From the NCBI GenBank assembly GCA_030700025.1, contig JAUYKI010000006.1, positions 13,428-77,427 on the forward strand: a DNA stretch of 64,000 nt, read 5' to 3'. Below, one piece after another: positions 13,308 through 58,766 of this stretch; positions within the stretch are counted from its first letter, which is position 1, and each line of letters begins with the position of its first letter. The notes beneath the pieces are model-generated. The model was not told the DNA's origin, made no database searches, and saw only the letters and a list, made by a program, of their open reading frames with translations. The position numbers were made by a program, and so were the translations under genes. Source of the DNA: a bacterium (GTDB lineage Bacteria; Patescibacteriota; Minisyncoccia; UBA6257; 02-FULL-45-10c).

Positions 13308-13490
13308 TCGTTTCCTCCCTAAATCCGCCAGCTGGCGGATTGGGCTAGCCCGTGCGTACGCACGTACGCCCTAGGGCGATCATCCGACCACTTTGTGGTT
13401 CAGGATGATTTAGCCTTTTTGGTTTTCAAACTACTGCGGTAGTATAATATATTAATTAAATCTCGTCAAGTAGTTTAGAAAAATTTTGAG

Positions 13491-29345: not shown

Positions 29346-32267
29346 TTAATTTTTCAATTCTGGCGAGAAGCCGCGGCGGGTTAGGTTTTCCGTAACACAG
29401 CGCGCTTCCAAGAGTTGCAGGAGATAATCAGGTCCACCGGCTTTTGGTCCGGTGCCGGAAGCGGCAAATCCGCCGAATGGCTGGCGTCCCACAACCGCGC
29501 CGGTAATCGGGCGATTGATGTACAGGTTGCCGACTGCGAATTGTTTTCTTGCCAGCGCTAAGTGCTCATCGGTTCGGGAATAAATTCCGCCGGTAAGCTT
29601 ATAACGCGTTCCATTGGCAATCTTCAAAGCTTCTTCTAAAGTCTGGGCTTTGATTACCGCCAGCACGGGCCCGAAAATTTCTTCTTGGGCGATCGTGTCA
29701 TCGGGTTTAACATTCGTAAAGATTGTCGGCCCGATAAACCATCCCTGTCCGTTCAGATCGGTAACGTCGGTTTGATAAGCGAATCTTGCTTCCGCTCTGC
29801 CAATTTCAATGTAGTGTCGGATGTCTTGAAATGCTTTCTGGTCAATGACTGCTCCCACGTCAGTCGAGGGATCGCAAGGATCACCGACTTTAAGCGTTGC
29901 CGTAGCGCCGATTAAGCGCCGGACAAATTCGTCATAAACCGATTCCAATACGATTACTCTTGAACAAGCAGAACACTTTTGACCTTGATAGCCGAAAGCG
30001 GATCGGACAACGCCGGAAACGGCTTGGTCCAGATCGGCCGAGTTATCAATAATCACCGCGTTTTTTCCGCCCATTTCCGCGATTACTCTCCGGCAATGGG
30101 TTTGCTGTTCCAATCCGGCATCGCCAGCCCATTTGATAAGCTGGAATCCGATTTGGCGCGATCCGGTGAAAAGCACATTTACAGTTGCTGGATGTTTAAC
30201 CAAATATTCTCCTAAGACTTTTCCGGAACCGGGCAGGAAGTTGATGGCTCCGCCGGGCAAGCCGGCATCCATCAATATCCGGACTAATTGGAATCCGGTC
30301 ATAGCGGTTGCGCTTGCCGGTTTGAAAACTACCGTGTTGCCGGCAGCTAATGCCGCGGCGCACATTCCAGTGGCAATTGCCAGGGGGAAATTCCAGGGAG
30401 CGATTACTACCGCCACGCCCCGGCCTTCGTATCCGTACTCGTTGGCTTCGCCAGCCAATTTTTCGGTTGAGCCGTAACGCGACAGGTAAACCGCCATTCT
30501 GGCGTAATACTCCAGGAAATCAATGGCTTCCGCGATATCCGCGTCAGCTTCTTTCCAGGTTTTGGACGCTTCCAAAACTTCCAGAGCTGCCAACCGGAAG
30601 CGCTCTTCGCGCATTCTAGCCGCCGCCTTAATCAAGATGGCTGCTCTTTTTTCCGCTGAAGTTTGGCTCCAGGCAGAGAAAGATTCTTGGGCGGCATTCA
30701 TTGCAAATCCGGCATGTTCCAGGGTCGCCTGGGAAATCCGGCCGAGAATTTGTTGTTGATTAATTCGGGATGGATTTTCCGGAGCAACGAATTTTTTAGT
30801 GGAAACCGCGACGCCGTTAATAATCAGCGGGAAATTTTTATCAAATTCCGTTTCCGCCAAATTGACGGCATTGGTCATTGCTACGCGATTCGGTATTTTG
30901 GAAAAATCGGTCAGCGGTTCTGGCTGGAAATTTTCCGGGACTAACAGTCGCTGTGGGGCGTTAACCGGTTGGTTAGCCATGGCCGCCTCCTTTCTGGGCT
31001 GGGTTTTGGCAAGAAAATTCATTCCCAAAAACGATTGTTGGCTGGTGTTTTCCAGCAACCGGCGCACCAAGTAGGCCATGCTGGGAATTAAATCCCCGTA
31101 AGGCGTATAGACCCGGACTTTGTAGCCGGCTCCGCGAATCGCTTCACGAACCGCGTCGCCCATTCCATAAAGAACCTGAAATTCGTTTTCGTTTTGGCCG
31201 ATGCCTAATGTTTTCATCGTGTCCATTACGTAAGCAATGCTGTTCAGATTGTGGCTGGCGCAAGCCAGCGTAACTGGAGTTCCGGATTTTTGAGCGATTA
31301 AAATTCGTTTGCAGAGAAGTTCAAACTGCCGGTCGGTCAAAGTTTTGTCGGTGAGAACTGGATTCGGCCAATGTTGGATTTCCGCATTGATGGTTTCAAA
31401 ATCCCAGTAAGCGCCTTTTACGACGCGAATGGTAACCGGACAATGATGTTCTCTGATCCAAATCAGAAAATCGGTTAAGGTTTTTTCCGCGTCCCGAAGA
31501 TAGGCCTGAAGAACAATTCCGGCATTTTTAATATCGGGATTGTATCTCAGCGTTTGTTTGAAAATGGCCATCGTTAAATCGCGGACGCCATACTGTTCTA
31601 TGTCTATATTGATGGCAACGTTATTTTCTTTTCCGGCGTGGAATAGCTTGGCTAATTGCCGGCTAACCGCGTCAACGCATCCGCTAAAATCCACGACGTC
31701 CCATTGTTGTTTGGGAATCAGCGCGGAAAGCTTAACAGAAACATTATGCGAGAATTCCGCGGGCGCCGGCTTTTGGCCCAGGCGTTCAATCAAGCGGAGA
31801 TAGGCATTCAAGAAATTATTCGCTTCGTCTTGGGTAAGAGATTCTTCGCCTAAAATATCCCAGGTAATATCGTGGCCTTGAGCGTTCAATCGCGCGCCAG
31901 TTTGTTCCAGCCGGCGGGGATCAACGCTGTCAATAATGTAATGCCGGGCAAAAAGCTTTATAGACCAGCGGATTATTAACGCCGTCAGATGGATTGCCAG
32001 CGGATGTTCGCCGATTAGCAATGCCATTCGGGCGATCCAGGGTAGGCTTTGTTTATGCGGACGGATATAAGAAAAGAAATGTCCGGCAATATCGCGATCA
32101 GTTTTTAAAATTGGAAAAACATCCACATAGCGGAAAAGCTGGGTCCGCAGGCCGTCGTTAGCCATGCAAATCGCCAGCAGTTTTTCTAAAAGCCGGTTTT
32201 GCCAGTTTCTTTTTGCCCAAATTTGCTCCACTCGGCCAATCAATGCTTCACCGGTAGGTGAGTTCAT
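29346..32267 (-). CDS. putA: bifunctional proline dehydrogenase / 1-pyrroline-5-carboxylate dehydrogenase (PutA-like, no DNA-binding domain)
   Basis: 973 aa; C-terminal ALDH domain with EMGGKN and catalytic Cys (QGQKCSACSR); N-terminal ~450 aa proline-dehydrogenase-like TIM barrel. Confidence 0.7.
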   Translation of the reverse strand: MNSPTGEALIGRVEQIWAKRNWQNRLLEKLLAICMANDGLRTQLFRYVDVFPILKTDRDIAGHFFSYIRPHKQSLPWIARMALLIGEHPLAIHLTALIIRWSIKLFARHYIIDSVDPRRLEQTGARLNAQGHDITWDILGEESLTQDEANNFLNAYLRLIERLGQKPAPAEFSHNVSVKLSALIPKQQWDVVDFSGCVDAVSRQLAKLFHAGKENNVAINIDIEQYGVRDLTMAIFKQTLRYNPDIKNAGIVLQAYLRDAEKTLTDFLIWIREHHCPVTIRVVKGAYWDFETINAEIQHWPNPVLTDKTLTDRQFELLCKRILIAQKSGTPVTLACASHNLNSIAYVMDTMKTLGIGQNENEFQVLYGMGDAVREAIRGAGYKVRVYTPYGDLIPSMAYLVRRLLENTSQQSFLGMNFLAKTQPRKEAAMANQPVNAPQRLLVPENFQPEPLTDFSKIPNRVAMTNAVNLAETEFDKNFPLIINGVAVSTKKFVAPENPSRINQQQILGRISQATLEHAGFAMNAAQESFSAWSQTSAEKRAAILIKAAARMREERFRLAALEVLEASKTWKEADADIAEAIDFLEYYARMAVYLSRYGSTEKLAGEANEYGYEGRGVAVVIAPWNFPLAIATGMCAAALAAGNTVVFKPASATAMTGFQLVRILMDAGLPGGAINFLPGSGKVLGEYLVKHPATVNVLFTGSRQIGFQLIKWAGDAGLEQQTHCRRVIAEMGGKNAVIIDNSADLDQAVSGVVRSAFGYQGQKCSACSRVIVLESVYDEFVRRLIGATATLKVGDPCDPSTDVGAVIDQKAFQDIRHYIEIGRAEARFAYQTDVTDLNGQGWFIGPTIFTNVKPDDTIAQEEIFGPVLAVIKAQTLEEALKIANGTRYKLTGGIYSRTDEHLALARKQFAVGNLYINRPITGAVVGRQPFGGFAASGTGPKAGGPDYLLQLLEARCVTENLTRRGFSPELKN

Positions 32268-48484: not shown

Positions 48485-49765
48485 ATGCGCAAGATATTAA
48501 TTATTGCCATTATTTCTGTTTTATTTGGGATGAATATAGTTCATGCCCAAGAAGGCGCTTCTCTTTTACCGTCCAATCCGTTTTATTTTCTTAAAGAATG
48601 GCGCCGGGGGGCCCAGCATTTTTTTGCCTTTAGCGCGTTAAAAGAATTGGAATTGGAATTGCAGATTGTTCATGAGAAAGCTTTTGAGACTAAAAGATTA
48701 GCCGAGATTGATTCCGAAAACGATAAAGCGCTGGAAAAGGCCATTGCCAGTTATTTAGAAAGCCTTAATCGGCTGCGGGACAGTTTGAGTTCGTTGTCCG
48801 AAGCCGGCCGGAACGCGAAAATAGAACAATTTTTTAATCAGCTAATTTCTAAAAGCATTACCCACTCGGAAATATTTTCCGGCTTGAAGCCGAACGCGTC
48901 CGATAAAAATCAAAAGGGGCTGGATCAATTACAGCAGTCTATTGGCCAAACATTAGCGATTATTCCGGAAAAGTTTTGGGGTTATAAAAAATTTCGGGAA
49001 AGCTTGGAGAGTATTTTAAACAGCCGAGACAATGGAGCGCTATCCGGAATGGAAGCGGTAGGATTTTTAAATTGGCTGGAAGGAGCTTTGCCGATAGAGG
49101 GCATTAAAGAAGTTTATAAGCTGGAAGAAGATATTTTATTGGCAATTCAGGGACAGCTTTTAGCCGATGCTTCGGCCTTGGATAATTTAACCGGCGATTC
49201 AGACCGCCTAGTGGTAGCGCTGGATGGATTGCGGGAGCAGGCGGGAGACGGCGCTGATTTAAAAACTAAATTAAATCTTTTGCGGCAGCAGATTTTGGAT
49301 CAGGCGCCTTCCAGGCCTGCCCGCAAATTAGCGGGAGAAAAAACTATCGCGGAGGCCAAGCGCTTGATTAGCGGATTAGAGGGGGATTTCAGCAAATCGT
49401 TTTTATTAGCCAGGGCAAAGTTCAATTTAGAGCAGGCAGAAGTTTCATTTGCCAGCGGCCAACACAACGCGGCATTCGGCCAGGCGACCGCGGCGGTGGC
49501 AGCAGTTAAAAGCGCTTTAGGTTTGATAGTCAGGAATCAGGAAGACTTTGAAAATGATATCAAAAATTTAAAATTCCAATATGATGAATTAGTTAAATTG
49601 GCCGGAGATAATGACGCGGTCATGGGGCTGTTAGCGAAAGCGGAAAAAGATTTGATTAAAGCGGCGGATTTATTAAGCGCTAAAAATCCTAATTTAGATA
49701 AAATTAATTCTTTAGTCCGGGGAGTGAAAATAATTTTGGCAGAAGCGGGAGCGCTGGTGAAATAG
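48485..49765 (+). CDS. secreted/surface alpha-helical protein, hypothetical
   Basis: 426 aa; signal peptide MRKILIIAIISVLFGMNIVHAQEG; helical/coiled-coil composition; terminator 49786-49810. Confidence 0.5.
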   Translation: MRKILIIAIISVLFGMNIVHAQEGASLLPSNPFYFLKEWRRGAQHFFAFSALKELELELQIVHEKAFETKRLAEIDSENDKALEKAIASYLESLNRLRDSLSSLSEAGRNAKIEQFFNQLISKSITHSEIFSGLKPNASDKNQKGLDQLQQSIGQTLAIIPEKFWGYKKFRESLESILNSRDNGALSGMEAVGFLNWLEGALPIEGIKEVYKLEEDILLAIQGQLLADASALDNLTGDSDRLVVALDGLREQAGDGADLKTKLNLLRQQILDQAPSRPARKLAGEKTIAEAKRLISGLEGDFSKSFLLARAKFNLEQAEVSFASGQHNAAFGQATAAVAAVKSALGLIVRNQEDFENDIKNLKFQYDELVKLAGDNDAVMGLLAKAEKDLIKAADLLSAKNPNLDKINSLVRGVKIILAEAGALVK

Positions 49766-50000: not shown

Positions 50001-51776
50001 ATGAACTCAAATCAAGTCCGTAAAGAATTTCTAAGTTTTTTTAAGAAACACGGCCATGCCATTGTGCCGTCTTCTTCGCTGGTGCCGGATGATCCTTCGG
50101 TGCTTTTGACTACCGCGGGAATGCAGCAATTCAAGCCGTATTATGTCGGAAAAGCGGACCCGATTCGGGATTTTAACAGCCGAGATGCCTGTTCGGCTCA
50201 AAAATGTTTCCGGACTTCGGATATTGATGAAGTGGGCGACGAAATTCACCTGACTTTTTTTGAAATGCTCGGCAATTTTTCTTTTGGCGGGTATTTCAAA
50301 AAAGAGGCGATTCATTTTGGCTACAATTTTATTGTTAATGTTTTGGGAATTAATCCGGAAAGAATGTATGTTTCGGTTTTTGAGGGAGATTCCGATGTTC
50401 CGCAAGACAAAGAATCTTTCCGCATTTGGCACGAAGAGCTGGGCCTTCCGAAAGACAAAATTAAGCTCCATAGCCGGGCGAATAATTTTTGGGGGCCGAC
50501 CGGCAACGAAGGCCCTTGCGGCCCGACCACGGAAATTTACGTTGCTCCCTCCGTCGCTGAAGCTATGGAGGGCAAGGGCGTGGAGGTTTGGAACATTGTT
50601 TTTAATGAATTTTACGGGAAAAGAACAGATCAAAAATTGGAGTTAAAAAAGCTGGAAACTTTTGGTATTGATACCGGCATGGGCTTGGAAAGATTGGCGG
50701 TTATGCTTCAGGGAGTAAAAAATGTTTTTGAAACCGATTTATTTCACCCGTTAATTACTCAAATTCGGGAAGTCGCCCCGCATTTGGATGAAAGAGCGTT
50801 GCGGGTATTGGCGGATCATTTGCGCGCCTCGGTATTTTTAATCGCGGATGGCGTTCGGCCGTCCAATAAAGAAGCGGGTTATATTTTGCGCCGTCTGCTT
50901 AGAAGAATTTTAGTTTACGGAATTAAATATGACATTCACGCTGATTTATTCCCGATTGCCGTAAGTTTTGTCAAAGAAAATTACAGCGAGCAGTATCCGG
51001 AAGTTTCTAAAAATAAAGAAATTTTGGACGCGATGCTGGATGAAAAAACTAAATTTGAAAAAGCTTTGGCGCTGGGAGTTAAAGAAATTGAAAAATACGG
51101 CGAAATTACCGCCCAAGACGCCTTCTATATATATGAGACCTTTGGCTTGCCGTTTGAGCTTCTGCAGGAGTTGGTTCCAGCTAAAATTAAGAATCTGGAT
51201 AAAAAAGCGTTTGACGAGGAGTTTAGGAAGCATCAGGAAATTTCCCGCGCCGGAGCGGAGAAAAAATTCGGCGGACACGGCTTGCTTCTGAATACGGGCG
51301 AATTAAAAGCCGGGAGCCAGGAAGAATTGGATAAGGTTTTGCGTTTGCACACCGCTACCCATCTTTTACAGCAGGCGCTGAGGGAAGTTTTGGGTTCGGA
51401 TGTCCATCAGATGGGTTCGGACGTTACCGCGGAACGGACCCGTTTTGACTTTTCTTTTTCTAGGAAGTTAACGGACGAAGAAGTGAAAAAAGTGGAGGAG
51501 ATTGTTAATGGGCAAGTTCAAAAAGATTTGCCCGTCGGATTTGTAGAAATGCCGTTGAATGAAGCCCAGAAAACCGGCGCCCTTCATTTTTTTAAGGAAA
51601 AATATCCGGAAAAAGTAAAAGTTTATTACGTCGGCCATTCATTGCAAGACGCTTTTAGCAAAGAATTCTGTGGAGGACCGCATGTAACGAATACCTTGAA
51701 GGTGGGGAAGTTTAAAATTTCTAAGCAGGAAGCAGTTGGGGCCGGAGTAAGGCGTATTCGGGGAATTGTGGAATAG
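50001..51776 (+). CDS. alaS: alanyl-tRNA synthetase (short form lacking C-terminal C-Ala domain)
   Basis: 591 aa; AlaRS N-terminal catalytic and tRNA-recognition domains (FKKHGHAIVPSSSLVP, TTAGMQQFKPY) and editing-domain HxxxH (HTATHLLQQAL). Confidence 0.85.
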   Translation: MNSNQVRKEFLSFFKKHGHAIVPSSSLVPDDPSVLLTTAGMQQFKPYYVGKADPIRDFNSRDACSAQKCFRTSDIDEVGDEIHLTFFEMLGNFSFGGYFKKEAIHFGYNFIVNVLGINPERMYVSVFEGDSDVPQDKESFRIWHEELGLPKDKIKLHSRANNFWGPTGNEGPCGPTTEIYVAPSVAEAMEGKGVEVWNIVFNEFYGKRTDQKLELKKLETFGIDTGMGLERLAVMLQGVKNVFETDLFHPLITQIREVAPHLDERALRVLADHLRASVFLIADGVRPSNKEAGYILRRLLRRILVYGIKYDIHADLFPIAVSFVKENYSEQYPEVSKNKEILDAMLDEKTKFEKALALGVKEIEKYGEITAQDAFYIYETFGLPFELLQELVPAKIKNLDKKAFDEEFRKHQEISRAGAEKKFGGHGLLLNTGELKAGSQEELDKVLRLHTATHLLQQALREVLGSDVHQMGSDVTAERTRFDFSFSRKLTDEEVKKVEEIVNGQVQKDLPVGFVEMPLNEAQKTGALHFFKEKYPEKVKVYYVGHSLQDAFSKEFCGGPHVTNTLKVGKFKISKQEAVGAGVRRIRGIVE

Positions 51777-51800
51777 GGGGCGAGGTATTACTATAGTTAT

Positions 51801-54800
51801 ATGTCCTCTGAAGAACACCAACAAAATTTTAAAGAGGCCTTGCTTCATTATTTTGGCATCTTAGTTTTAGCTTTAATTTTTCTTTTCCCGGGAAAGCCCC
51901 AGGCTGCTCCAGGGCCGTTGCCACAACTGGTGGGCTATCTTGCGGTGGATTCCGGCGCTAATGTTTTTCATACCTATGATTCTATAGATATCGCGGGAAC
52001 TAAAGTTTTTCTGGCTATGAAAAACCGCAATGTTATTCGGGTGGTAGATGTTTCGTCTCCAACGAACCCTGCCATTATTGCTACATCTTCTCCTTTAGCG
52101 GCAGATTTTTTTATCGGATTGGTAAATAATATCGCGTACACTATTATGGGAAATTATTTCCAAACGGTGGATATTTCCAATATAAATAATATGCCCGTTT
52201 TGGATAATTGGGGTTCGTATGGTTTGGCGCCAACCTCATTGGCTACTCGAAATGGTTATACCTATGTTTTGTATTTAATGGAGAACAAGATGCGAATTTT
52301 CGACGTAACTAATTCCGCTAATATTCAAAATGTCGGAACTATCAGCACTAGTCCGCACCCGGCCTATATTCGCATTAAAGATTCCTACGCCTATGTTATA
52401 ACCACAGGAATGTTGTCAGCGCCAACTCTAGAAATATATGATTTAGCCGATCCATCAAGGCCAATACAGGTTGGAAAAATTAGTACCGTATATGCCGCGC
52501 ATGGCCTTCGAATTGCCGGAAATTTTGCCTATGTATTAGTAGGCCTAAATACATTGCAAGCTTATGATATATCCGATCCGACACAACCAAGGGCCGTAAG
52601 CGCCATTCAAATTGATAATCAGTCGCCTGCTTTAGATATCGCCGGAAATTGCGCTTATGTAGTAAGCCGGGGAGCCAATACCTTGCAAGTTTTTAATATT
52701 GCCGACCCCTTGCACTTGAAAAGGTCTGGATCAGTTAATCTCGGTCCTGGCGTTACTCCGGCCGATATTAGGGTGACTAATAATTATGCTTATGTCGCTA
52801 ATAACTCCTCGCAAACATTACCGAGCCGATCGAATTTAGAGATTTTTGACATCAGCAACGTTCAGGCACAAGGATGCCCGGGCATTGATGCTACTTCGGT
52901 TTCGTTATCATCGGCTCCAATAGTAACTACGACCACCGCGATTCCGAATTCTTGTCCGGCGCTGGTGAATTTAAACCCGACCGTACAGGGTCAGACAGGC
53001 GTACTAGGAATATCTTATAATTTAGAAACTATCAAAGTTTCTGGAAATTGGGCGTTTGTTATTGCCCAGGATCTAAATACTTTAAATTCTATTAATATTT
53101 CCGACGTAACCCAGGTAGCTCTTAGAACTAGGCAAGGCGGCGCCAGCTTCATCAGAACCGGATCGCTCCCCCTTGATCTTTTTGTATCGGGAAATTTTGC
53201 TTACGTAATTACCGGTTCTAATTTGCTTCAGGTCTTTGACGTTTCTGACCCTTTAAATATGAGTTTGGTGGGAACGATTGCTACGCATCAAAGCCCAAAT
53301 TCGGTATTTGTTTCCGGCCAATATGCTTATGTAGTGAATACCGGACCTCGAACTTTGCAAATTTTTAACGTGGCTAACCCCCAAAATATCTCAGAGGTTA
53401 GTTCTTTAAAAGTAGATGGTGCCGGCTACGGCGTCGCGGTAACTAATGGTTACGCTTATGTGATTAATGGGATCGGAAAAGATTTGAGAGCTTATGACGT
53501 CAGTAATCCCGCTAATCCAAGATTGGCCGGATTGATTGGAACTACCGGCGCGCCCAGCGGTTTATTTATTAAAAATAATTTCGCTTACGTAGTTACACAT
53601 TTAGGATTAGAAATTTTTGATATTTCTAATCCATCCCAAATTCAGAAACGCGGCCAGTCAGCAGTCACCGCGTTATCCCGGTCAATATTTGTTACCGAAA
53701 ACTATGCCTATGTGGGAAAAATAAGCGGGGCAGTTGCCGATCCGAATAGTGGATCCACGGTTCAGGCCAATTGGGTAATTTTTGATATTTCCGATCCGGA
53801 TAATCCAAGAATCGCGGCCGGTAATTTTAGCAATCGGATTTTTGACTATGGACTTTATATGCGATCCACTTTTGTAGTTGGCAATTACGCTTTTGTCACC
53901 GAGAACTCCATCACTCGCGGCCAAAACAGTTCTATACGGGTTTTTTGCATTTCTCCTACAGAAAGCGGTGTGGCTTGCGGTTGTCCGCCGCCGACTCCAG
54001 CTCCAGCGCCCACTGTTGCCACAGCGGTTGCTCCACCCGTGAGTCCGGTGGTTACGGCGCCGACAACTAGCTCGCTTAATTTGGCATTAGCGCCGGAGTT
54101 GGTTGGTTCGGCCCAGACCGGAGACGAACCAGTTTCAATTTTTATTTATGGCCATCATTGTTACGTTATCAACCGCATTACCGGCTCGGTTCAAATTTTT
54201 GATATTTTGGATCCGAATAGTCCGGTTTTAGTAGGAGAGTTTCAAACTGATCCCGGGCCGGAGAGAATAGAAGTCGCGGACGGTTTTGCTTATGTGGTTA
54301 GCGGAGCTTCGGACACGCTCCAAATTTATAATGTTTCTGATCCCAGCAATCCGCGATGGGTAAGTTCCATCAGAACCGGCAGATTTCCGAATTTCATCCG
54401 AAGATCCGGGCAATATATTTACGTCACTAATCGGGATTCTAATACGTTACAAGTTTTTGATGTTTCCAATTCCGCGAGCCCGAGATTGGTTAGCAGCGCC
54501 AATTTAGGGCCTTGCACTTGCCACACCTACATAATTAATAATTATATTTATATTACTAATGAAGGATCTAATGCTTTGCAAGTTTTTGACATTGCGGATC
54601 CGACCCGTCCTCGTTTAGCCGGTTCGGCAATTACCCGGCCAAATCCCCGCGGAATTTATGTTTTTGGAAGCTATGCTTATGTTTTGAGTTATCAAGGAAA
54701 TACTCTGGAAGTTTTTGATGTCTCTAGTCCTTCCCGGCCTCGGTCGTTGGGTTGGACCAATACCGCCGCGGGCGCGCATTCCATTTTTATCCGGGGGCCT

Positions 54801-57320
54801 TACGCTTTTGTAACTGCTTTTGACGCCCACCAGCTCCAGGTTTTTGACATTAGCGATCCGGCTAGTCCGGCGCTGGTTACCTATATTAATACCGGGCCAT
54901 GCGCTTGCGGTTTATACGTTGCCGGAGATTACGCTTATGTTTTAAATACCAATGGAGACGCGCTTCAAGTTTTTGATATCAGCAGGGTATTGGCCCGTCG
55001 GGCGAATGCCAGGATATTGCGTCCCGTATTTATCAATCGTTTTAATACCGGAGCGGATCCGCAGGATCTTTGGGTAGCCGATCAAACTGTTTACGTAAAT
55101 CCTGTTTCGTCCGAAAGAGTCCAGATTATTGATTTTTCCAATCCGGATAATCCGGTGAATGTCGGCATTGTCCGTACCAATGGCGATTCGCGCTCGGTTT
55201 TTGTGTTTGATTGCTTGACTGGAAAATGTTTGTGCGTAGTAAATTGGATTACTAATACAATTCAGATTTTTGATATTTCCAACCCGAATCGTCCGCGGGA
55301 AACGGGCCGGGCTAATTTAAGTTTGGGCGCTTGGGACGTAGACGTTGCGGCGCCCTACGCTTATTCGGTGAGTTATAACTCCGGAATCTTAGAAGTTACT
55401 GATTTATCCAATCCTAATAGTCCGGCAGTAGTGGGCCGGGCCAGCACTAATCCCCAGCCATTCGCGGTTGAAGTAGCCGGCAGTTATGCCTATGTAATTA
55501 GTTTTGGTTCCGACGAAAGCCCGACAGCGCGGGGAACATTGGAAATTTTTAATGTTTCTAACCCATTTTTGCCGGTTCGGGTCAGCAGTATTCCAACCAG
55601 CAGAAGCCCCAGAGGAATTTTTATTTCCGGCAATAATGCGTACGTAGTTAACTGGGACGCCAATAATTTAGAAGTTTTTGATATTACTTCGCCGTTTAAC
55701 CCTAGCTTGATTGGTTCTATCGGCACCGGCCAGAATCCGCGATCTGTATTTGTAGAAAATAATCTTGCTTATGTCGCGAATACCGGATCGGATACTTTGC
55801 AAGTGTTTGACGTTTCCAATCCTTCGGCAATGGCTCTTCTTTATGATTTAGCAACTGATCAGGATCCAAGAGCGGTTTTCGTTGATGACCCATTTGTTTA
55901 CGTCGCTAATAGCGGTCCGGACACGGTTCAAGTATTTGATCTTTACGGCGGCACCAGTGTTTTTCCGTCCGCATCTCCATTAGCAGAATTTTTTGCAGCG
56001 GCTTTGCCTCCGGAAGCGGTAACAGTTGTCGGAGAGGCGAGGTCAATTGAATTGGCTTTATCATCGCCAGTGACGGCAGAGGAATCAGAATTGATTTCGC
56101 CGTTGACCGAGGGCGTAACGGAGCCGGTTGCGCTGCCGGAAGATGAAGTTGTAGCAGCTCAGCTCCAAACTCCAGGACAGCCGGAAAATCTGGTAGACGA
56201 ATCCATAACCCCGGTAATTCCGATACTGGAATTACAAACTCCTAATTTATTTGCGCCGGAAATTTACAATAGCCAATTATCAGCTCCGGCGCCCGCTCCG
56301 ATTGCGGTTTCTTTATCTCCGCAAGAACAATTAAATATTACTGCGAATCAAGAAAGAGCTAGGCAGGCAGCTCAATTAGCGAGACAAGCCGTATCCGAAG
56401 CGCGTTTATTGGCGGATCAGGCGGAGGCGGTGGCGGATCAGGCGAGGAATTCAATCAATGAAGCGGAGCGGGCGATTTATCCGTCGCTTCTGGCTATGAA
56501 TCCGAACAATCTTATTAATTTGCCGCAATTGGGCGTTCCCGGGGCGCAAGGAGTTATTCAAGCAAGCCAGGAAATCGCCGAGCAATTGCAAGAAGCAGTA
56601 ACGGCAATGGAAGAAGCGATTGAAGAAGCGGAACAATCGGCAGAGGTAGCGCAAGCTGAATTAGAAAATGCCGAGAATGCAGTTAGCGTTTCTGATGCCC
56701 AATCCGCAGCCGACAGAGTCCAAGATGCTGTTGATGACGTTGTGGCTCAAACCAATGAAGCGTCGGCGCAAGCGGAACAAATTTTGGCGTTAGCCGAACA
56801 GGTCAGCCAAATTACGGAACAAGCCGATGTTTTGGCTGAGTCCGCGTCGGTTTTGCCGGATTCCATTATAGCTTCGGACCTAAGTCAATTAACGGCCGAC
56901 CTACTTTCCTTAGAAGGGGACCGCCGTATGACTGGCGGAGGAAGTTTTGCCGATGCTACGCATGGCTTTGAATTACATTGCGACGCTAATGATTTGCCGA
57001 ATAATTTAGAAATTAATTGGCTGGGACGCGGACGAAGTTCGGGAAGCCATTATTTTCATTTAGAAAATCTAGTTTCTGCCGTTTGCAGTGATGATTCCGA
57101 AATTGACGAGGAGATGCCGGTGGCGGGATTTGATACTTATGTCGGATCGGGCCACGGTCGGTATGACGGAATTTCCGGCGCGACAATAGAATTTACTTTA
57201 ACGGATGCCGGCGAGCCGGGCAGAAATGATTTTACCAAAGTGGTAATTAAAGATAAGGACGGCGCAGTAGTTTTGGATGCTTCCGGCGCTCTTAAGTTCG
57301 GCAATCATCAGGCGCATTAA
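51801..57320 (+). CDS. giant surface protein with >25 LVIVD-type beta-propeller repeats, Pro/Thr linker, coiled-coil region and unique C-terminal domain
   Basis: 1839 aa; signal-anchor; repeated units ...YAYV...LQVFDISNPxxPxxVG...; APTPAPAP linker ~aa 720; AEQ-rich coiled coil ~aa 1500-1650. Confidence 0.75.
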   Translation: MSSEEHQQNFKEALLHYFGILVLALIFLFPGKPQAAPGPLPQLVGYLAVDSGANVFHTYDSIDIAGTKVFLAMKNRNVIRVVDVSSPTNPAIIATSSPLAADFFIGLVNNIAYTIMGNYFQTVDISNINNMPVLDNWGSYGLAPTSLATRNGYTYVLYLMENKMRIFDVTNSANIQNVGTISTSPHPAYIRIKDSYAYVITTGMLSAPTLEIYDLADPSRPIQVGKISTVYAAHGLRIAGNFAYVLVGLNTLQAYDISDPTQPRAVSAIQIDNQSPALDIAGNCAYVVSRGANTLQVFNIADPLHLKRSGSVNLGPGVTPADIRVTNNYAYVANNSSQTLPSRSNLEIFDISNVQAQGCPGIDATSVSLSSAPIVTTTTAIPNSCPALVNLNPTVQGQTGVLGISYNLETIKVSGNWAFVIAQDLNTLNSINISDVTQVALRTRQGGASFIRTGSLPLDLFVSGNFAYVITGSNLLQVFDVSDPLNMSLVGTIATHQSPNSVFVSGQYAYVVNTGPRTLQIFNVANPQNISEVSSLKVDGAGYGVAVTNGYAYVINGIGKDLRAYDVSNPANPRLAGLIGTTGAPSGLFIKNNFAYVVTHLGLEIFDISNPSQIQKRGQSAVTALSRSIFVTENYAYVGKISGAVADPNSGSTVQANWVIFDISDPDNPRIAAGNFSNRIFDYGLYMRSTFVVGNYAFVTENSITRGQNSSIRVFCISPTESGVACGCPPPTPAPAPTVATAVAPPVSPVVTAPTTSSLNLALAPELVGSAQTGDEPVSIFIYGHHCYVINRITGSVQIFDILDPNSPVLVGEFQTDPGPERIEVADGFAYVVSGASDTLQIYNVSDPSNPRWVSSIRTGRFPNFIRRSGQYIYVTNRDSNTLQVFDVSNSASPRLVSSANLGPCTCHTYIINNYIYITNEGSNALQVFDIADPTRPRLAGSAITRPNPRGIYVFGSYAYVLSYQGNTLEVFDVSSPSRPRSLGWTNTAAGAHSIFIRGPYAFVTAFDAHQLQVFDISDPASPALVTYINTGPCACGLYVAGDYAYVLNTNGDALQVFDISRVLARRANARILRPVFINRFNTGADPQDLWVADQTVYVNPVSSERVQIIDFSNPDNPVNVGIVRTNGDSRSVFVFDCLTGKCLCVVNWITNTIQIFDISNPNRPRETGRANLSLGAWDVDVAAPYAYSVSYNSGILEVTDLSNPNSPAVVGRASTNPQPFAVEVAGSYAYVISFGSDESPTARGTLEIFNVSNPFLPVRVSSIPTSRSPRGIFISGNNAYVVNWDANNLEVFDITSPFNPSLIGSIGTGQNPRSVFVENNLAYVANTGSDTLQVFDVSNPSAMALLYDLATDQDPRAVFVDDPFVYVANSGPDTVQVFDLYGGTSVFPSASPLAEFFAAALPPEAVTVVGEARSIELALSSPVTAEESELISPLTEGVTEPVALPEDEVVAAQLQTPGQPENLVDESITPVIPILELQTPNLFAPEIYNSQLSAPAPAPIAVSLSPQEQLNITANQERARQAAQLARQAVSEARLLADQAEAVADQARNSINEAERAIYPSLLAMNPNNLINLPQLGVPGAQGVIQASQEIAEQLQEAVTAMEEAIEEAEQSAEVAQAELENAENAVSVSDAQSAADRVQDAVDDVVAQTNEASAQAEQILALAEQVSQITEQADVLAESASVLPDSIIASDLSQLTADLLSLEGDRRMTGGGSFADATHGFELHCDANDLPNNLEINWLGRGRSSGSHYFHLENLVSAVCSDDSEIDEEMPVAGFDTYVGSGHGRYDGISGATIEFTLTDAGEPGRNDFTKVVIKDKDGAVVLDASGALKFGNHQAH

Positions 57321-57345
57321 TGTATCCTCGGGCATATTGTTTTTC

Positions 57346-57435
57346 GGAAACAGAATAAATTTTTTCCAGCGAAAAATTTTTCTTCGCCCTCAGCGCATTT
57401 TGTGGTCCAAGCAAAATGCGCCTGCGGGATGTTCC
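57346..57435 (-). repeat. Family-1 element, copy F (core; flanks ATATTGTTTTT / AAAAACAATAT)
   Basis: second stem AAATTTTT/AAAAATTT; first stem carries compensatory GCGCATTTTG...CAAAATGCGC. Confidence 0.85.
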
Positions 57436-57517
57436 TAAAAACAATATACCCTTAGCTAATTGACTCAATTTTAAGGAAATAAAAAAAACCGCCGGTTCAT
57501 CCAGCGGTAAATATATT

Positions 57518-57811
57518 TTATGCAATGCGTAAAACAAGCATTGAATTTGGGAAGATACTAGAAACACCCCTCAGATTCTCCGCTCTTCCATGAGTAGAAG
57601 AGGTAAGTACCTCAATGGTCCCGACGGAATGAGCTTTAGTAAAAATACGGGATATCCCCCGAAATCCTCCATGCCCGCTATTATCTCCCGGCAAAGGAAA
57701 ACAAATAAACTTCTCATAGACTTTAAGCTCTCCAAAAGTCATCGGCTCAAAACAAGCGGCCGATTCTTGAACAATTCTCTTCTTTAAATCTTTAGCGGCT
57801 TTAGATGTCAT
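57518..57811 (-). CDS. hypothetical protein
   Basis: 97 aa; promoter ATGACA-18-TAATAT and RBS GGAGGGAAG upstream; terminator-like hairpin downstream. Confidence 0.5.
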   Translation of the reverse strand: MTSKAAKDLKKRIVQESAACFEPMTFGELKVYEKFICFPLPGDNSGHGGFRGISRIFTKAHSVGTIEVLTSSTHGRAENLRGVSSIFPNSMLVLRIA

Positions 57812-57848
57812 TTATTTCTTCCCTCCATCAAAGAGCTTCAGTAACAGG

Positions 57849-57879
57849 ATATTAGCATATTAATAGCTTGTTTGTCATA
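57849..57879 (-). promoter_or_regulatory. promoter module ATGACA-18-TAATAT (copy 1 of duplicated 35-bp promoter)
   Basis: 35-bp near-identical direct repeat with 58462-58496; immediately upstream of 57518-57811 gene with RBS. Confidence 0.55.
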
Positions 57880-57896
57880 CTCGAGCGAAGCTGACA

Positions 57897-58120
57897 CCCC
57901 CTTCCTGGGTATTTAGCGAGGAAATCTTTATTCTCCGTAGCGCGGGCTGAGGGCTGAGCGGGCAGGGTGTCCCGCGAAGCGGGACGAGCGAAGCCCGAGA
58001 CCCAGTGAAAACTTCCCTCACTCTTGTACAAAAGTGAGGGACTGGGAGTTTGAATTGTAGCGGGAGAATAAAGGTTTCCGAGTAAGGTGTTGAGGAGCGG
58101 TGGCTCGGCTGAGCGCTGAG
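57897..58120 (-). repeat. Family-3 mosaic repeat region (inverted homolog of 14166-14270 + 14403-14470 and modules of 12226-12530)
   Basis: shares ~90-bp unit CGCTAC..TTCAAACTCCCAGTCCCTCACTTTTGTACAAGAGTGAGGGAAGTTTTCACTGGG..TTCGCTCG and others with the 14.2-kb and 12.3-kb loci. Confidence 0.75.
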
Positions 58121-58130
58121 ATAGGTCTAA

Positions 58131-58168
58131 AAGAAATAAAAAAGCCGCGCTATAGTATCGCGCGGCTT
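58131..58168 (-). terminator. rho-independent terminator after zinc-ribbon gene
   Basis: AAGCCGCGCTATAGTATCGCGCGGCTT with T-run on minus strand. Confidence 0.65.
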
Positions 58169-58190
58169 GCTTGAACTAATTATTCTCGAA

Positions 58191-58427
58191 TTACCTTCTG
58201 TTGGGTAAACTCTTGGCCAGGACGGGTTCTTTGCGGGGAGGGATAGGCTCGGGCGAAGAATTTAAAAAGTGTCTTTGTACTTCTGCTCCGGTCACCGGTC
58301 CTTTCACGCCAGCTACATTAAACTTAGCTTTGGCACCCGCGGGACAATCGCAGGGTAAATCATTATTTCCCGTCTCCCAAACTCCAGTGCCTCCGCACTT
58401 CTTACATTCAGAGTCTATCTCTAGCAT
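58191..58427 (-). CDS. small zinc-ribbon protein (CxxCxGxG ... CxC), hypothetical
   Basis: start moved to internal ATG after RBS GGAGGAG; upstream ATG at 58475 lies inside the -10 of its own promoter TTGACA-18-TAATAT; CKKCGGTG motif; terminator 58142-58168. Confidence 0.5.
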   Translation of the reverse strand: MLEIDSECKKCGGTGVWETGNNDLPCDCPAGAKAKFNVAGVKGPVTGAEVQRHFLNSSPEPIPPRKEPVLAKSLPNRR

Positions 58428-58464
58428 TTTTTCTCCTCCACGGTAAAGAACATCACCGTGACAG

Positions 58465-58495
58465 GATATTAGCATATCAATAGCTTGTTTGTCAA
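58465..58495 (-). promoter_or_regulatory. promoter module TTGACA-18-TAATAT (copy 2)
   Basis: same 35-bp module upstream of the zinc-ribbon gene 58191-58427. Confidence 0.55.
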
Positions 58496-58499
58496 GTTG

Positions 58500-58766
58500 A
58501 ACCTATCCCTATAATATTTTCCACCGCGATATTAGTCAATTTTATTCAGAACTAGGCTATGAGGGCGAAGCTGTGGTTTTACCACGCTGAGTCCGAGTAA
58601 CGACGTTATGGATAAAATTGGCTATATCCCGTAGGGTTGCGGTCTAAATTGAAAATTTCGTTGTTCTGCCTCGGAGCTATAGCTTAGGCTATAAACCTCC
58701 TCGGCACGCCTAGAAATTTTCAATTTATCTTGACAACGCGGTTAGGAAATATTATAGGGATAGGTT
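58500..58766. repeat. ~265-bp element bounded by 28/30-bp terminal inverted repeats (AACCTATCCCTATAATATTTTCCACCGCG / CGCGGTTAGGAAATATTATAGGGATAGGTT)
   Basis: arms seen directly; inner inverted repeat TAAATTGAAAATTTC / GAAATTTTCAATTTA; right arm overlaps promoter/RBS of 58769 gene. Confidence 0.7.

Follow-up and report, generated by a model that had tools for sequence, protein, structure and literature searches.

LVIVD repeats were defined in 2004 in archaeal and bacterial cell-surface proteins (Adindla et al., PMC2447325), and a seven-bladed propeller has been proposed as the adhesin tip of the Saccharibacteria pilus (PMC12206443). Here we describe a giant gene on contig JAUYKI010000006.1 (GenBank assembly GCA_030700025.1), within a stretch of 64,000 nucleotides (positions 13,428 to 77,427 of the contig) that we refer to as the window; all positions are counted from its first letter. 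Judged by its sequence, the encoded protein of 1839 residues is an ordinary member of the LVIVD or choice-of-anchor B proteins, multi-propeller forms of which are common across phyla; it ends in a predicted eight-stranded β-barrel that belongs to an uncharacterised, sizeable domain family without a Pfam entry or a solved structure. We think it rather probable that the giant protein is an exported, multivalent binding protein, serving adhesion or host contact, in which the N-terminal propellers vary and the C-terminal module is conserved.

The gene and its domain features are not due to chance. The open reading frame (ORF) has an ATG start and no internal stop, with a GAGG sequence ~14 nt upstream, and the start codon is backed by the alignment to the syntenic orthologue P0121, which begins at residue 4. 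A Logan contig from a separate assembly (SRR13727534_31165) encodes the identical protein, and two homologues with the full architecture were found (P0121 and P0122). The first-pass annotation of this DNA had described the gene as the largest in the window and directly following alaS, and this is what we see: the next largest ORF encodes 973 residues, and alaS (50001..51776) ends 24 nt before the giant gene starts. In the NCBI records the neighbouring alanyl-tRNA synthetase (AlaRS) and sigma factor are MDP3999172.1 and MDP3999170.1, and the exact 1839-residue sequence did not turn up in a cluster look-up; the deposited annotation of the giant gene may carry another gene model or a pseudogene label. 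The gene and the parts of its product are as follows.

51801..57320, + strand: giant gene, complete; 1839 residues plus stop codon (ORF list, translation)
51801..51908, + strand: putative N-terminal export signal or signal-anchor, residues 1-36; hydrophobic core at residues 13-31, then PGKPQAAPG
51933..52898, + strand: LVIVD propeller 1, residues 45-366; predicted blade starts at residues 60, 104, 144, 187, 233, 275 and 320
52899..52997, + strand: linker with Thr/Ser/Cys, residues 367-399; 44-residue gap between matches of the blade model, Cys residues nearby
52998..53954, + strand: LVIVD propeller 2, residues 400-718; predicted blade starts at residues 409, 457, 499, 543, 585, 626 and 688
53955..54095, + strand: Pro/Thr-rich linker, residues 719-765, with CGCPPPTPAPAPTVATAVAPPVSPVVTAPTTSS; 46-residue gap between blades
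54096..54980, + strand: LVIVD propeller 3, residues 766-1060; seven four-stranded blades predicted (AlphaFold2 model, blade model), starting at residues 777, 820, 863, 906, 949, 992 and 1035 by the blade model
54981..55025, + strand: short inter-propeller linker, residues 1061-1075; one short helix and a low-confidence stretch (model residues 296-310)
55026..55943, + strand: LVIVD propeller 4, residues 1076-1381; seven four-stranded blades predicted (AlphaFold2 model, blade model), starting at residues 1087, 1130, 1177, 1220, 1270, 1313 and 1356 by the blade model
55944..56321, + strand: Pro/Glu-rich acidic spacer, probably extended, residues 1382-1507
56322..56900, + strand: Ala/Gln/Glu-rich acidic spacer, probably helical, residues 1508-1700 (composition, Pro/Gly map)
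56916..57317, + strand: predicted C-terminal eight-stranded β-barrel, residues 1706-1839 (134 residues), ending in GNHQAH at the stop codon

Propellers, spacer and putative export signal

The repeats were assigned with Pfam, where the LVIVD family (PF08309) matches the giant protein with 229.5 bits (cut-off 20.2; E=1.6e-69) in 14 stretches, the best-scoring of which (residues 459-495) lies in propeller 2; the NCBIfam choice-of-anchor B model (TIGR04312) is also passed, with 137.6 bits at a cut-off of 100. A blade hidden Markov model (HMM), built from 18 motif matches and iterated on the giant protein, resolved 28 blades with a period of ~43 residues in four groups of seven, in line with the more than 25 LVIVD-like blades counted by the first-pass annotation. 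Two of the blades in propellers 1 and 2 score weakly with this profile, one of them being blade 2 of propeller 1, and Pfam matches to Beta_propel and DUF7099 fall within propeller 1 (residues 153-296). An AlphaFold2 model of residues 766-1395 (ma358fb8e335f), calculated from aligned sequences of the nearest relatives (A4), reached a mean predicted local distance difference test score (pLDDT) of 91.6, with propeller 3 mostly above 90, and consists of 28 strands (model residues 2-294), the short linker and another 28 strands (residues 311-615). In this model the region forms 14 four-stranded blades in two sets of seven, and it is predicted to fold into two separate closed seven-bladed propellers; by analogy, propellers 1 and 2 would be seven-bladed as well.

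Foldseek comparisons of this model returned tandem double propellers, such as UTP/WDR proteins and LRP6, with E-values down to 5e-22; these matches are generic tandem propellers, with no specific enzyme among them, and a sequence search of the PDB with propellers 3 and 4 gave marginal matches at best (E ~0.003). An APTPAPAP linker at ~53980-54070 had been said to split two propeller sets. The position is right, with the linker core CGCPPPTPAPAPTVATAVAPPVSPVVTAPTTSS (also written CGCPPPTPAPAP...TTSS) at residues 726-758 (nt 53976-54074); what it divides are not simply two sets but four propellers, two on either side. Pairwise identity among the four propellers is 27-37%, and no tandem repeats were found at the DNA level in the giant gene; the propeller repeats are thus ancient, and neither amplification in recent times nor misassembly explains them.

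As an observation in its own right, CxC motifs stand at blade starts: GPCTCHTY (~54510-54530, residues 904-910), GPCACGLY (~54897-54917, residues 1033-1039) and DCLTGKCLCV (~55212-55238, residues 1138-1146). These motifs are kept in P0121 (CTCGTY, GPCGCGLW, CEKCLCV) and not in P0122; on propellers 3 and 4 they may form disulfides or bind a metal.

The propellers are followed by an acidic spacer. Its first part (residues 1386-1507) contains 15% Pro and a single residue that is Lys or Arg, at a net charge of -16; the second part (residues 1508-1700) contains 22% Ala, 13% Gln and 12% Glu, at a net charge of -27, and the protein as a whole has a net charge of -82. A Pro/Gly loop at residues 1559-1584 breaks the Ala/Gln/Glu region into Pro-free segments (~1508-1558 and 1585-1685), and Pfam matches in this region are weak and sub-threshold. 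The region had been taken for a long coiled coil rich in Ala, Glu and Gln; the composition is as described, and the canonical coiled coil is not borne out. A crude heptad test, in which hydrophobic residues were scored in their best frame against 2000 shuffles, gave shuffle fractions of 0.87, 0.05, 0.62 and 0.09 for four segments, none of them significant, and because of this we prefer to call the region an acidic spacer that is probably helical.

Comparison with P0121, a syntenic orthologue from a genome whose AlaRS is 74% identical, reveals a gradient of conservation along the protein. Propellers 1 and 2 are ~29-35% identical, with their best matches to non-colinear propellers; propellers 3 and 4 are colinear and 55% and 53% identical, respectively; the spacer cannot be aligned; and the C-terminal barrel, at 71%, is the most conserved part of all. 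Where the helical region stands in the giant protein, P0121 has ~290 residues of Pro-rich sequence, and the spacer of P0122 consists of a Pro-rich segment, an FN3-like region (PF00041, from a precomputed Pfam list) and an Ala/Gln/Glu helical region. A spacer is present in all three proteins (~290-510 residues), even though its sequence is not conserved.

When the whole protein was scanned with 19-residue Kyte-Doolittle windows, only the N-terminal segment exceeded 1.6. The orthologues also have a hydrophobic N-terminus, with A-x-A-like sites (SYA/HH and SLA/SH). No C-terminal sorting signal of the LPXTG, PEP-CTERM or type IX secretion system (T9SS) C-terminal domain kind was found: there is no hydrophobic window at that end, and no Pfam or NCBIfam sorting domain matches. 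From the hydrophobic N-terminus, here and in the orthologues, we infer that the giant protein is exported and located at the surface.

The C-terminal barrel as a domain family

The first-pass annotation had pointed out a distinct Cys/His-containing C-terminal domain (GFELHCDANDL...), and this observation has held up: the motif occupies residues 1722-1732, the domain contains two Cys and several His residues, and both the homologue search and the AlphaFold2 model agree with a separate domain. Based on an alignment of 121 rows that includes the window sequence (A2), AlphaFold2 predicts eight β-strands with a pLDDT of 96 and a predicted template modelling score (pTM) of 0.89. The profile of the same alignment scores 202 bits on the giant ORF, a value to be read with the window sequence being one of its 121 rows. 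Pfam gave no match to the isolated C-terminal domain even at E=10, and no Pfam model covers the barrel in the 121 family members.

The sole curated model that recognises the barrel is post-COAP-1 (NCBIfam NF041523), below its threshold and over half its length. It scores 20.9 bits on the full protein and 26.7 bits on the isolated barrel, neither of which reaches the cut-off of 40, and the alignment is confined to positions 62-114 of the 115 in the model, covering the DAGEPG...GNHQAH half of the barrel. The same weak match is seen in 24 of 26 members of the barrel family, with a best E-value of 1.7e-8. The barrel is a distant relative of post-COAP-1, and by the curated cut-off it is not a member.

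Searches of the PDB with the barrel sequence and with its profile returned nothing below E=0.01, and Foldseek of the barrel model against the PDB and BFVD gave no match at E<0.001. The top matches, all of them non-significant, were small eight-stranded barrels with TM-scores of 0.32-0.42, E-values of ~0.1, root-mean-square deviations above 7 Å and 10-15% identity. They include pallilysin Tp0751 of Treponema (5jk2), the C-terminal barrel of the meningococcal factor H-binding protein fHbp (4ayn), YceI and de novo designed barrels, which are similar to the barrel in strand number and size; with matches that are not significant, the likeness goes no further. Both Tp0751 and fHbp are located at the cell surface and bind molecules of the host. 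A literature search on LVIVD, choice-of-anchor and post-COAP proteins yielded the 2004 paper defining the repeat as the only relevant publication, and no trace of the barrel.

The family is large and widespread. Among 5.8 billion proteins searched, 142 relatives of the barrel were found at 45-64% identity, almost all without annotation, which attests the family independently of the profile score above, and a profile search of 1.84 billion representatives clustered at 50% identity recovered 2468 members at E<=1e-3, 940 of them at E<=1e-30. In species-representative genomes, 242 barrel stretches were confirmed; identity to the query is 48-63% in the best 80 loci, which span Bacteria and Archaea. 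The bacterial carriers include Acidobacteriota, Chloroflexota, Actinomycetota, Proteobacteria, Nitrospirota, Gemmatimonadota, Desantisbacteria and Patescibacteria, and the archaeal ones Nitrosopumilaceae, Nitrososphaeraceae, Methanoperedens and Bathyarchaeota. The conserved motifs are (R)MTGGG, THGFELHC, PNNLE(V/I)NW, FHL, a second invariant Cys, P.AGFDT, DAGEPG..D and a terminal GN(H/Q)QAH; certain His, Glu, Asp and Asn residues and two Cys vary little or not at all. Numbered within the domain, the invariant positions are H16, E19, H21, C22, H48, C57, D97, E100, D105, N130, Q132 and H134. All motifs tested in the window protein (MTGGG, THGFELHC, PNNLE(V/I)NW, FHL, DAGEPG and GN(H/Q)QAH) are present.

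The proteins that carry the barrel are between 170 and more than 2100 residues long, and nearly all complete ones begin with a hydrophobic segment that, as judged by eye, resembles a signal peptide. In 246 of 263 sampled members the barrel ends at most 12 residues from the C-terminus; in the other 17 it is internal or duplicated. The domains preceding it are diverse and of kinds typical for extracellular proteins or adhesins: Big_9/cadherin-like, SpaA-type, ice-binding-like, SBBP propellers, VWA, TSP3 and RTX. A second Patescibacteria giant with the barrel (locus L069) is built of SpaA_2 domains. Fusion of the barrel to LVIVD repeats is rare, being seen in two of the 120 best LVIVD relatives (P0121 and P0122) and in none of the 263 sampled barrel members.

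Some apparent stand-alone forms were set aside. In one locus (P0030, L086 1482-3384) the barrel "protein" has 127 residues and starts at the Met of MTGGG, with several short ORFs preceding it on the same strand; it is probably a fragmented larger gene, and 127-residue "proteins" starting at this Met carry no weight in our conclusions. The same kind of artefact may account for some of the short family members in databases.

Exported proteins that carry the barrel number in the thousands and come from bacteria of soil and sediment as well as from ammonia-oxidising and methane-cycling archaea. The barrel is the only part of the giant protein that merits follow-up. It is compact, highly conserved and confidently modelled, and thus tractable for structural and biochemical characterisation.

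Proposed function and competing explanations

In the reading that we favour, the giant protein would be exported through the Sec pathway, and its parts would follow in the order export signal, four propellers (2 + 2), acidic spacer of ~320 residues and barrel of 134 residues. The fast-evolving N-terminal propellers would provide the target-binding surfaces, with four propeller faces available, and the acidic spacer would act as a flexible stalk between propellers and barrel. The barrel would contribute binding of a second, conserved kind: it would attach to the envelope of the cell itself or hold a conserved ligand or metal. That the N-terminal propeller pair evolves fastest is what would be expected for target-facing tips of an adhesin, and on this basis the barrel side would probably face the cell. 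The first-pass annotation had already proposed an adhesin or host-interaction protein; this role is suggested by the architecture, the export signal, the conservation gradient and the accessory status of the gene.

The gene is accessory, because one relative has it at the corresponding site and three others lack it. The segment concerned is the following.

51777..58729, no strand assigned: accessory segment comprising the giant gene and ~1.4 kb downstream, between alaS and two conserved genes (~410-440 and ~530 residues)

The giant gene stands at this site in GCA_040961635.1 (P0121, 1815 residues). In two other relatives, L083 (AlaRS 79% identical) and L084 (a Harrisonbacteria contig), the two conserved genes come right after alaS and the giant is absent; in L085 other small genes follow alaS, again with no giant gene. 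Host attachment and recognition in Patescibacteria, or the Candidate Phyla Radiation (CPR), are largely unknown, and accessory, fast-evolving multi-propeller proteins are plausible determinants of host range.

Several observations weigh against this reading, in particular against a barrel that serves as an anchor tag. A stand-alone form, consisting of signal peptide and barrel in 179 residues, is encoded on the complete chromosome of Variovorax sp. RA8. In P0242 two copies of the barrel are followed by a dockerin, which does not fit a simple anchor tag. At the 80 genome loci with the barrel there is no conserved neighbour gene that could be a processing or anchoring partner, and the only large cluster of neighbours consists of further barrel-carrying proteins. 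The stand-alone form, the dockerin-followed copies and the missing neighbour together argue that the barrel is a globular domain in its own right, which has a function of its own and a strong preference for C-termini, and not a classical sorting tag. At the other end of the protein, the n-region of the signal is net acidic and the candidate cleavage site PQA/AP is poor; the N-terminal segment may stay on the protein as an anchor, and the topology would then be the opposite of the one that we favour.

Such a reversed arrangement, with an uncleaved N-terminal anchor, the propellers near the membrane and the barrel as a distal head that binds a ligand or metal or acts catalytically, is the strongest of the alternatives, and we consider it somewhat unlikely. 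It would account for the poor PQA/AP site and for the barrel being the most conserved part (71%), with His, Glu, Asp, Asn and two Cys residues that are invariant or nearly so; the barrel's existence as a stand-alone secreted protein and ahead of the dockerin in P0242 also suggests that it has a function of its own. On the other hand, the A-x-A sites of P0121 and P0122 are good, and with ~25 residues from the hydrophobic segment to the first blade the four propellers would have to sit under the wall. The N-terminal end is moreover the variable one, and in adhesins the variable end is usually distal and faces the target.

A further proposal concerns the barrel itself, which might be an undescribed extracellular module of Bacteria and Archaea, either with a conserved activity of its own (metal-dependent binding or catalysis) or with a new mode of surface docking that serves different types of envelope. 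We regard this as clearly unlikely; if true, the CPR giant would be one of the barrel's rare fusions to a propeller array. In its favour are the size of the family (2468 representatives), an identity of 48-63% between Bacteria and Archaea, the invariant or nearly invariant residues, a confidently predicted fold with no significant neighbour in the PDB, and the lack of a Pfam model and of any match in the literature search.

We judge it quite improbable that the giant is a structural component of the envelope, S-layer-like or a wall-associated scaffold. LVIVD repeats were first described in cell-surface proteins of Methanosarcina (PMC2447325), and a large, highly acidic protein (net charge -82) would suit such a role; yet the gene is absent at the same locus in close relatives, a poor fit to an essential scaffold, and the N-terminal half of the protein diverges very fast.

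A propeller enzyme of the methanethiol oxidase/SBP56 or lactonase type is hardly credible and was rejected: the Pfam models SBP56 (75.8 bits) and Lactonase (53.9 bits) do exceed their gathering scores, but their best stretches cover 33 residues (one blade) and 81 residues, so that the repeats match this well-characterised enzyme class in blades or part-propellers only; all equivalog cut-offs in NCBIfam were failed (MtoX, 27.8 vs 650; PRK11028, 6-phosphogluconolactonase, 31.3 vs 370; PQQ_ABC_repeats, 54.4 vs 287), the PDB sequence search did no better than E=0.003, and the fold matches were to generic tandem propellers.

Genomic setting and comparison with described systems

The best matches of the AlaRS encoded next to the giant gene are 70-83% identical, and those that are named belong to Patescibacteria (Harrisonbacteria, Pacebacteria/Paceibacterota, Wolfebacteria and Giovannonibacteria), which points to a Parcubacteria-type CPR bacterium as the host. 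The repeats had been called typical of ultra-small bacteria. The CPR source agrees with this, but LVIVD giants are not specific to CPR, since the closest 120 LVIVD relatives span phyla and include Methanoregula, Heimdallarchaeota, Flavobacteriales, Thermodesulfobacteriota and Omnitrophota.

The backbone of the locus reads dnaG, rpoD, a gene for a DUF5667 protein, alaS and the two genes of ~410-440 and ~530 residues, with rpsK and rpsD downstream; the loci of relatives also show infA, rpsM and rpoA. A mobile-element signature for the accessory segment was considered and rejected: no flanking direct repeats were found around the segment, there is no tRNA or other RNA gene nearby, and its GC content is like that of the rest of the window. 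No further LVIVD or barrel proteins are encoded within the window. Between positions 52001 and 58000 the GC skew is ~0-0.07 in the giant gene vs 0.15-0.17 in the preceding housekeeping genes, with unchanged GC content; this drop could come from amino-acid composition or from a foreign origin of the accessory segment.

Downstream of the giant gene, the accessory segment contains a 37-nt direct repeat, 95% identical between its copies (57841-57877 and 58458-58494). Each copy lies immediately upstream, with respect to the minus strand, of a small ORF (57518..57811 and 58191..58475, both on the - strand), and the repeat contains a sigma-70-like element, (T/A)TGACA-18-TAATAT. One of the two small ORFs (94 residues) has a zinc-ribbon-like CxxCGGTG...CDC motif; neither has a Pfam match.

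Three other genes of the window deserve mention. The AlaRS (50001..51776, + strand) has 591 residues, with just the tRNA-synt_2c and tRNA_SAD domains, and typical bacterial AlaRS is much longer. All of its 120 best homologues are short (556-662 residues; Patescibacteria where named), and the short form is a trait of the clade and not a truncation. Between rpoD and alaS lies the gene for a secreted protein of the DUF5667 family (48485..49765, + strand), which is conserved in the clade (L084, 8393-9937; L085, 8491-9900). A full-length bifunctional PutA of 972 residues (29346..32267, - strand), with PutA_N, proline dehydrogenase and aldehyde dehydrogenase, seems unexpected on a Patescibacteria contig; Patescibacteria are generally regarded as metabolically reduced.

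Among described systems, the giant protein shares with hundreds of LVIVD/choice-of-anchor B relatives the repeat of ~42-43 residues and the large, putatively exported, multi-propeller build; at the C-terminus many of these relatives have T9SS tails, dockerins, PKD, FN3 or other domains, whereas the giant ends in the barrel. PilX2 of Saccharibacteria and PilY1 of Pseudomonas resemble it in having a seven-bladed propeller as the proposed host-binding element (PMC12206443); theirs are propellers of the RCC1 type carried on a type IV pilus, in contrast to the four LVIVD-type propellers of the giant, which lacks pilin features. The wall adhesins of Gram-positive bacteria resemble it in the order of parts, with an export signal (putative in the giant), variable binding domains, a Pro-rich or otherwise extended spacer and a conserved C-terminal module following one another. 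These adhesins differ from the giant at the C-terminal end, where in place of an LPXTG motif with its hydrophobic segment, or of known wall-binding repeats, the giant has a terminal module that is predicted to be a globular barrel.

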